The translations under genes were made by a program, and so were the position numbers. DNA of 56,361 bases, filler included, from Dugesia japonica (Eukaryota): NCBI GenBank assembly GCA_001938525.1. It is 5 parts of 5 records of this genome, joined end to end, with 100 filler letters (N's around TTAATTAATTAA, not from the genome) between each part and the next. Parts side by side here need not be neighbours in the genome. Positions count along the whole stretch, not along the records: positions 1 to 11,443 come from MQRL01630205.1; 4 more parts are not named here. One strand, given 5' to 3'. Shown here piece after piece: positions 10,013 through 11,258 of this stretch (within the stretch, counting starts at the first letter, position 1; each line of letters opens with the position of its first letter). A model generated the notes under the pieces. It was not told where the DNA came from. It did no database searches and worked only from the letters and a program-made list of their open reading frames with translations.

Positions 10013-10054
10013 AAAAAAACGTCATGCATGTCGTTTTATCAAGATTAAAAAGGA
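10013..10054 (+). repeat. 42-bp inverted repeat, left copy
   Basis: AAAAAAACGTCATGCATGTCGTTTTATCAAGATTAAAAAGGA; exact reverse complement of 11217-11258. Confidence 0.95.
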
Positions 10055-10098
10055 CTTGTGATTTTATAAAAATAAAACTAGAAAAATAAAACTAGAAA

Positions 10099-11226
10099 AT
10101 GAAATGTATGATTAAAAAAAATAGTCTTAAAATGGAAGAGGTTTTATCTATTTTAAACAAAATTATTAAATCTTGTGATAAATTAGAAGAATTAGATAAT
10201 AAAATTACTAATGAAAATTATTATTTAACATTTTATGAAAAGATTTGTGAAATTAAGAAAAAAGTTGATTTTGAAAGTGATATTAATGTAAAATTTATTA
10301 ATAAAGATAAAAATATTACATTAGAATATAAAAAAAAACTAGCTAACGAATGGTTGTATAAATCTAAAGAAGAACAAGAAAATTCTATTCCATTTGTAAA
10401 AGGATCTGTAAATTATAAATATATTATGGAAGAAAGAAAGAAAATGAATAAATTTAATGAATTTCAAAAGAAAGCAATTGAAATATTAGAAAGTAAAAAT
10501 AAACCTAAAATTGTAACTAAAATTGAAACTAAAGCCACAAAGGCCGAAGGACCTGTAACTAAAATTGTAACTAAAATTGTAACTAAACCTGAAATATTAG
10601 AAACTAAAGCAGTAACTAATATTGTAAATATCGAAGAATCTAAAAATAAACTCTCTTATAAAGAAATTGAGGATATAATAATTAAACCATCTGATTTAAC
10701 TCGTTATGAAAAATCAGTAATTAAAGAAGGACGAAGAACTAAAAAAATATTAAATAAAGAATCAAAACCAGATTTTAAATCTAAATTTTTAAAATCTTTA
10801 ACTAATAAACCTTTACCAATATCTATTATAAAACAATATAGTACATGTAAAACTTTAAGTATTACTGAAGTATCTGAATATAATTATTTAACATTAAATA
10901 AAAAAAATATTACAGAAGAAATTAAATATTGGGGGAGTGTAACACAAACATGTAATCAAGTTAGTTTATTAAGTTACACGAAATTAGGAAAATTACTTTC
11001 AATAATGAAAAAAGATTTTAATAAGACTCCTAATTTAGTTAATTATTTACATGGAGAAGAGATTAATTATTCAAAAAGACATATTCAAAGGCTAATTAAA
11101 TTTAGTAAAATAGCTGATGAATATCCAAAAATATTAACTACTACTTTTTCATTTTATAAACTCTCACTTCATTTTAGAGAAATTAAAGAAATAATTAATG
11201 AAGAAATTAAAGAATTTCCTTTTTAA
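10099..11226 (+). CDS. Hypothetical Lys-rich protein with VTKI repeats and a C-terminal HTH-like (DUF3102-like) region
   Basis: Intact 375-aa ORF (alternative start 10132). C-terminal LGKLLSIMKK...INYSKRHIQRLIKFSKIADEYPKI. The stop codon lies inside the right inverted repeat. Confidence 0.75.
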   Translation: MKCMIKKNSLKMEEVLSILNKIIKSCDKLEELDNKITNENYYLTFYEKICEIKKKVDFESDINVKFINKDKNITLEYKKKLANEWLYKSKEEQENSIPFVKGSVNYKYIMEERKKMNKFNEFQKKAIEILESKNKPKIVTKIETKATKAEGPVTKIVTKIVTKPEILETKAVTNIVNIEESKNKLSYKEIEDIIIKPSDLTRYEKSVIKEGRRTKKILNKESKPDFKSKFLKSLTNKPLPISIIKQYSTCKTLSITEVSEYNYLTLNKKNITEEIKYWGSVTQTCNQVSLLSYTKLGKLLSIMKKDFNKTPNLVNYLHGEEINYSKRHIQRLIKFSKIADEYPKILTTTFSFYKLSLHFREIKEIINEEIKEFPF

Positions 11227-11258
11227 TCTTGATAAAACGACATGCATGACGTTTTTTT
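11217..11258 (-). repeat. 42-bp inverted repeat, right copy
   Basis: Exact reverse complement of 10013-10054. Confidence 0.95.

Follow-up and report, generated by a model that had tools for sequence, protein, structure and literature searches.

In an element of the Polinton type in the genome of Dugesia japonica (GCA_001938525.1), a single gene is bracketed by two short inverted repeats which are identical letter for letter. The question raised by this locus is whether the repeats delimit a unit that moves, flips or regulates itself, or whether they are the trace of a copying event which happened once. The window considered here is the whole stretch of 56,361 nucleotides that was analysed, filler included; the element sequence ends at 11444, a scaffold gap starting at 11445. 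The features on which the argument relies are the following.

3085..7031, plus strand: protein-primed DNA polymerase with N-terminal C2H2 zinc fingers (PF03175, E 1.7e-20; zf-C2H2_jaz, E 5.1e-10), broken by assembly gaps.
7080..9109, plus strand: ORFs of 234 and 438 aa, no Pfam family above cut-off.
9125..9967, plus strand: ORF of 280 aa upstream of the cassette, no Pfam family above cut-off.
9968..10012, plus strand: three tandem units of the element-specific motif CCATAAAG(G/T), filling the 45 nt from the upstream stop to the left arm.
10013..10054, no strand: left 42-bp arm, identical in inverted orientation to 11217-11258 and aligned with the array 9968-10012 as its fourth unit.
10016..10037, no strand: left palindrome, 22 bp with one mismatched pair; RNA hairpin weak (arm z -0.96).
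10065..10071, plus strand: TATA-like box, TATAAAA, 28 nt upstream of the ATG and within the cassette, its function being suggested by its sequence.
10099..11226, plus strand: ORF of 375 aa, with a helical N-terminus, a low-complexity K/T/I linker and an all-helical C-terminal domain (about aa 260-366) predicted to be HTH-like.
10460..10575, plus strand: linker-coding stretch resembling the 3' part of the 234-aa ORF (7630-7745; 68.9% over 122 nt in a blastn confined to the window, E 4.7e-4).
11217..11258, no strand: right 42-bp arm, holding the last codons of the ORF and tandem stops.
11234..11255, no strand: right palindrome, 22 bp, between two converging stop codons.
11294..11443, minus strand: 3' end (49 codons) of a high-copy element gene, an open frame with its stop at 11294-11296 that converges on the cassette, without Pfam match and cut by the scaffold gap.

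The initial annotation had located the cassette inside a Polinton, and the protein-primed family B DNA polymerase expected of such an element is indeed present, with the PF03175 match given above; the labels of the other core genes come from sequence motifs. From these motifs we take the 234-aa ORF to be pX-like, the 438-aa ORF PZ/GasderminX-like and the 280-aa ORF minor-capsid (penton)-like, and no Pfam or PHROG family was found above threshold for the minor-capsid- and PZ-like ORFs. At the far left of the window, two polymerase-bearing ends (1-2648 and 2762-5515), 83-90% identical, lie head-to-head with a perfect 47-bp hairpin of 10-nt loop (2688-2791) at their junction. Both polymerase frames are open, with dN/dS of 0.45 (433 codons) and 0.10 (206 codons), which suggests that two elements, each under its own selection, became joined by their termini. 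Neither an AG/AGT end motif nor a target-site duplication (TSD) was seen at the left end of the element (sister-copy junction near 2740). The remainder of the window consists of AT-rich eukaryotic sequence in which transposons have decayed. Past the scaffold gap, 11565-12600 is a decayed transposase relic, presumably hAT-like according to its translated motifs; by the same kind of evidence, we take 33908-35043 (minus strand) for degenerate fragments of another pPolB-like gene, and 16000-18560, 44300-46780, 53100-55760 and 36620-36886 for decayed Ty3-like retroelements and an ISXO2/Merlin-like transposase fragment. The successions of N-run, TTAATTAATTAA and N-run at 11445-11544, 23331-23430, 32001-32100 and 40799-40899 are assembly spacers and not biology.

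Several dispersed repeats are proper to the element. The motif CCATAAAGG occurs eight times in 1-11444 and not once in the other 45 kb of the window; this motif, which is GC-richer, and its variants, equally absent from those 45 kb, were located at 316, 5192, 6998, 7007, 7513, 7702, 8925, 9718, 9973, 10003 and 10535, and motifs of this type are found in-frame within several element genes, in both orientations. The element-specific motif is also present in the 375-aa ORF. After the arms, the longest exact repeats of 3000-11444 are a direct one of 24 nt (5186/9712), common to the polymerase and the penton-like gene, and an inverted one of 19 nt (6989/7701). A conversion at the 5186 motif (a 7-of-24 difference) was considered and rejected, as 58 of 597 windows reach that level and it is thus background. 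The likeness of the linker to the 234-aa ORF and the dispersed exact repeats would fit a long residence in the lineage and frequent internal copying.

The anatomy of the bracketing repeats agrees with what the initial annotation had described. Extended as far as it stays exact, the inverted repeat measures 42 bp (10013-10054 and 11217-11258), far above the longest one reached in 200 order-3 Markov simulations of 7001-11400, which served as the null for inverted-repeat length (maximum 22, mean 14.8). The claimed near-perfect palindrome was retrieved in each arm, with a single mismatched pair over 22 bp, and the window holds no third copy of the arm at 14 mismatches or fewer. The ORF does end within the right arm: the third base of a codon, then two complete codons and the stop lie there, and four in-frame codons of the arm include three stops. 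No direct repeat is common to the 20-bp outer flanks of the two arms, and the reported absence of a TSD therefore holds. The arms are spaced by 45 nt from the stop of the upstream gene and by 35 nt from that of the minus-strand downstream gene. RNA hairpins related to the arms were weak in all five folds (-3.1 to -8.3 kcal/mol, z -0.08 to -1.60), and a strong RNA terminator hairpin at the arms was rejected. The symmetry extending beyond the right palindrome (9 of 14) was discarded as background, being reached by 9.7% of 16,165 positions. The pattern of the palindrome had no match in metagenome and viral contigs.

The protein encoded between the arms belongs, through its C-terminal ~110 aa, to a small unnamed family of five homologues. 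Two of them were found by searching 1.84 billion representative proteins with the ORF, both on aa 259-366, two more by a profile search and one by a cluster look-up. Three of the five are 214-222 aa long and the two others are shorter; they end 8-10 residues past a conserved IK, the ORF 12 residues past it. A whole-protein search of 5.8 billion proteins gave nothing at E<=0.001 among 7,998 candidates, and no longer, fused form of the ORF appeared among 7,999 candidates, which is weak evidence. The initial annotation had recognised no DDE or tyrosine-recombinase motif in this protein, and this stands: no DDE or recombinase family is among its Pfam matches at E<=1, and its sole HxxR (aa 328-331), tried as a tyrosine-recombinase signature, is kept in none of the five homologues. 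An N-terminal homology to protein P0005 was rejected (E 0.11), the best PDB sequence match had an E-value of 0.54 and, in PHROGs, phrog_38633, whose function is unassigned there, matches protein P0002 only.

The same annotation had also pointed to an HTH-like C-terminal region, for which several hints agree, each of them below its cut-off or noise line. DUF3102 matches four of the six family members at E<=1, with a best score of 16.6 bits against a curated cut-off of 24.4. Structure prediction, as had been proposed, yielded an all-helical model of aa 202-375 with a pLDDT of 67.5; the single-sequence fold had a pLDDT of 34, and the first 200 aa are without a confident model. Foldseek found no match at E<=0.001 in PDB and viral structures. 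With VIA-align, all matches fall under the noise line of 8: as whole-domain matches, the ParB DNA-binding domain 6t1f (Z 6.0, rmsd 5.8, 95 aligned) and ParB/Spo0J 1vz0 (Z 5.8, rmsd 3.8, 88 aligned), then 6s6h (Z 4.4), and, equally high outside ParB, Raf1 (Z 5.9) and the N-terminal domain of USP8 (Z 6.3). By their titles, 6t1f and 6s6h are complexes with parS. ParB binds a palindrome as a dimer, and Raf1 is not known to bind DNA. Neighbours in the ESM Atlas, to be taken as leads only, are unnamed clusters (0.90-0.94), DUF6192 (0.92) and DUF3102 (0.89). The ORF thus resembles the HTH domain of ParB/Spo0J and DUF3102 through a whole-domain structural match and a sub-threshold profile match, but it lacks the N-terminal domain of ParB, its scores are below trusted thresholds and Raf1 scores as high. 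As three weak signals agree, a ParB/DUF3102-like helix-turn-helix DNA-binding protein is predicted as a lead and not as a result. Text matches to "parb" in PMC3671162 turned out to be the abbreviation Parbu.

Three DNA runs, each from a different study (X1-X3), supplied contigs that were aligned to 5600-11444 at 80% likeness. Between 16,329 and 17,994 contigs per run match this region and suggest a very large Polinton family in the host; the contig joints listed point to length variation and to other gene orders. Summed contig depth, which is not a copy number, has a median of 289/706/574 over the six bins of the cassette and of 14,841/23,783/19,480 over the 24 other bins in the three runs, the flanking element genes being about 35-50 times deeper than the cassette. 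The exact pieces of the cassette have a depth of 8-17.5, and divergent pieces, with 30-37 differences over 202-229 nt, represent paralogues about 85% identical. This combination of low depth and divergent paralogues makes the ORF look like an accessory gene of one subfamily, and gives some support to the exchangeable cassette evoked in the initial annotation. Because four of the other 24 bins have a depth as low as that of the cassette, the low depth may also reflect fast divergence. The gene is likely an accessory gene of a Polinton subfamily, the alternative being a common gene which diverges rapidly. No RNA run was among those listed as containing the sequence; in one RNA run, of which about a quarter was read, 120 reads matched, all of them partially, and 97 were less than 90% alike.

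Accessory genes are not new in these elements, as cargo genes of Mavericks are already known (bioRxiv 10.1101/2022.07.12.499685; PMC8502044) and vertebrate Mavericks are described, in the part of the source covered, with two converging gene modules and accessory regions outside them (PMC8097293). The present element shares with them, as far as the passages covered go, the pPolB gene, gene runs that converge and an additional, variable ORF (PMC8097293; 10.1101/2022.07.12.499685). It differs in that their accessory regions flank the core modules (in the covered part of PMC8097293), whereas the 375-aa gene sits at the point of convergence with short inverted repeats of its own; its protein family is not named among the Maverick accessory genes in the covered passages of PMC8097293 and 10.1101/2022.07.12.499685.

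Depth also bears on the arms themselves. At 11333, in the neighbouring gene, it is 12,099/17,982/17,450, and in the right arm at most 2,468/4,735/3,916; the arm is thus not generally present at the 3' end of this neighbour. The 5' spacer at 10085 has a depth of 93-303, against the 8-17.5 of the exact pieces; other copies therefore share this spacer and might share the arm. One contig of run X3 carries 32 different letters straight past the upstream stop. None of the pieces listed (24 of 52,586) and none of the joints listed (15 of 159) crosses an arm, and among them no copy in the state before the duplication was seen. Checked by alignment, 426, 590 and 150 pattern matches yielded no confirmed related locus, nor did 12 found via the pPolB stretch, and a tblastn against phages had no match (two chance rows).

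The tandem units upstream of the left arm start in register at 9968, 9982, 9997 and 10012, the last being the start of a fourth unit, which the left arm occupies from 10013 on. The arm begins with C-A(n)-C as a unit does, and ends with AAAGGA as unit 1 does. Among the 15,797 42-mers of the element, 36 have such a start, 102 such an end and five both, including the arms, for an expectation of 0.23 under independence, the pattern being A-rich and picked after the sequence had been viewed. Outside the right arm, there is no such tandem array, and this arm carries the stops of the ORF at roughly the length at which the homologues terminate. An exact inverted copy of nearby DNA, with microhomology at both junctions (in this post hoc pattern), is what a template switch would leave. 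We therefore favour, with moderate confidence, an accessory gene carried by a single subfamily of a Polinton/Maverick element present in high copy, encoding a predicted HTH protein, whose arms arose once by a template-switched inverted copy of the palindromic site at its 3' end. The right arm would be the donor, i.e. the native site, and the left arm the recipient: the polymerase would switch template at shared letters, copy the right site in inverted orientation and switch back, the copy landing in the short tandem repeat directly upstream of the gene. The single-stranded DNA needed for the switch may have come from strand-displacement replication by the polymerase of the element or from break repair. 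A recent event would explain why the arms do not differ. At its native place, the palindrome probably works as double-stranded DNA to which a protein binds, perhaps the product of the ORF, and less probably as an RNA hairpin. Flipping between the two arms could at most be passive, and it would change little since the promoter-like box moves along with the gene. A one-off local inversion-duplication had been set by the initial annotation against its own readings, and the register and the letters shared at both ends favour that origin; the left arm most likely results from a copying accident, in preference to marking the terminus of a new mobile element or belonging to a flip switch.

Comparable inverted insertions, attributed to MMBIR or template switching, were described in human, ape and yeast chromosomes (PMC8421209, PMC11724301, PMC7954356), and in the parts of these papers covered they have in common with the present case a short exact inverted copy of nearby DNA and shared letters at both junctions. 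Unlike them, the present case is set in a Polinton, with a donor 1.2 kb away.

A different history, which we regard as doubtful, is that the palindromes serve as operators bound by a dimer of the HTH product, that selection retains one on either side of the gene, and that they are gained or lost with the gene as a unit among Polinton subfamilies, the identity of the arms being upheld by pairing in single-stranded replication intermediates. It would account for arms that are perfect although the paralogues are ~15% different, for a left palindrome whose centre is about 40 bp upstream of the TATA-like box, and for a cassette placed where two gene runs converge; the ParB-like fold hints and the weak RNA folding, which favours a DNA dyad, are also in line with it, and the autoregulated gene proposed in the initial annotation keeps some ground for the same fold hints and the same position of the palindrome. 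No paralogue with arms was seen, however, among the pieces and joints listed, no recombinase was found in the ORF, the 17 bp of identity outside the palindrome are needless for an operator, and the microhomology at the junctions explains the left arm without selection. The related proposal of a self-recognising module, in which a ParB-like HTH gene would lie between its own putative binding sites, be kept perfect by replication pairing and be swapped at the centre of the element without a recombinase of its own, seems unlikely to us. Internal repeats which bracket replicase modules, often with an integrase, were reported in Polisuviricotina (bioRxiv 10.64898/2026.10.13.758929), and in the covered part of that preprint they bracket genes separately from the TIRs, as the arms do here; unlike these modules, the cassette consists of a single non-catalytic gene with arms of 42 bp (10.64898/2026.10.13.758929). 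It is improbable that the 42 bp serve as a 3'-end signal, read by both converging neighbours 45 and 35 nt past their stops and shielding the gene from read-through: the equivalent positions after both stops and the presence of a hairpin, a T-run and ATTAAA within the arm fit this role, but the hairpins are weak in five of five folds, other genes of the element are without such a site and the depth of the arm is at most about a quarter of that of the neighbour.

The readings that involve transposition or recombination fare less well. A non-autonomous TIR transposon nested in the element, with a host transposase or the Polinton integrase acting in trans to move it, has in its favour the perfect 42-bp terminal inverted repeats, the stop codon lying in the right repeat and the several copies of the gene. 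We consider it distinctly improbable, as the flanks show no TSD, no DDE domain was found at Pfam E<=1, the modelled domain is all-helical, no longer fused relative was seen (weak evidence) and the ORF shares element-specific sequence with its neighbours. We know of no transposon superfamily whose end motif matches the A7 ends of the arms. The new minimal mobile element suggested by the initial annotation is thus not supported, lacking a TSD and a catalytic domain and being tied to the element by this common sequence. Nor is its invertible switch: a programmed inversion worked by a site-specific recombinase could use inverted sites with dyad cores, but the ORF has no recombinase domain and a symmetric recombination-site core confers no directionality. 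Since the promoter-like box is itself part of the invertible stretch, a flip would reorient no promoter in the flanks and would switch nothing obvious; we find this reading very improbable. That a mis-assembly of a gappy, high-copy repeat joined an arm to the wrong flank is suggested by the many gaps nearby and the thousands of related contigs, and the best-matching runs may be the source of the assembly itself; exact interior pieces are nevertheless present in three runs of three studies, 0.63-0.72 of the sampled words are present and the ORF is intact through both ends, so that we give this explanation hardly any weight.

In the literature searched, we found no Polinton in which short perfect repeats enclose one non-catalytic gene; figure 6 of the preprint 10.64898/2026.10.13.758929 and element descriptions of the Repbase type might hold similar cases. 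On the template-switch reading, which we prefer, the locus would be a snapshot of a Polinton remodelling itself through short, microhomology-guided copying, a finding of modest significance which would also add an unnamed helical protein family to the accessory genes of Polintons. The high copy number in the host makes the question of the arms directly testable with long reads. If the paralogues keep perfect arms of their own, the arms would provide a defined route for the exchange of accessory genes, and the gene and its sites would be the first named regulator-site pair found for such an element in the literature searched.
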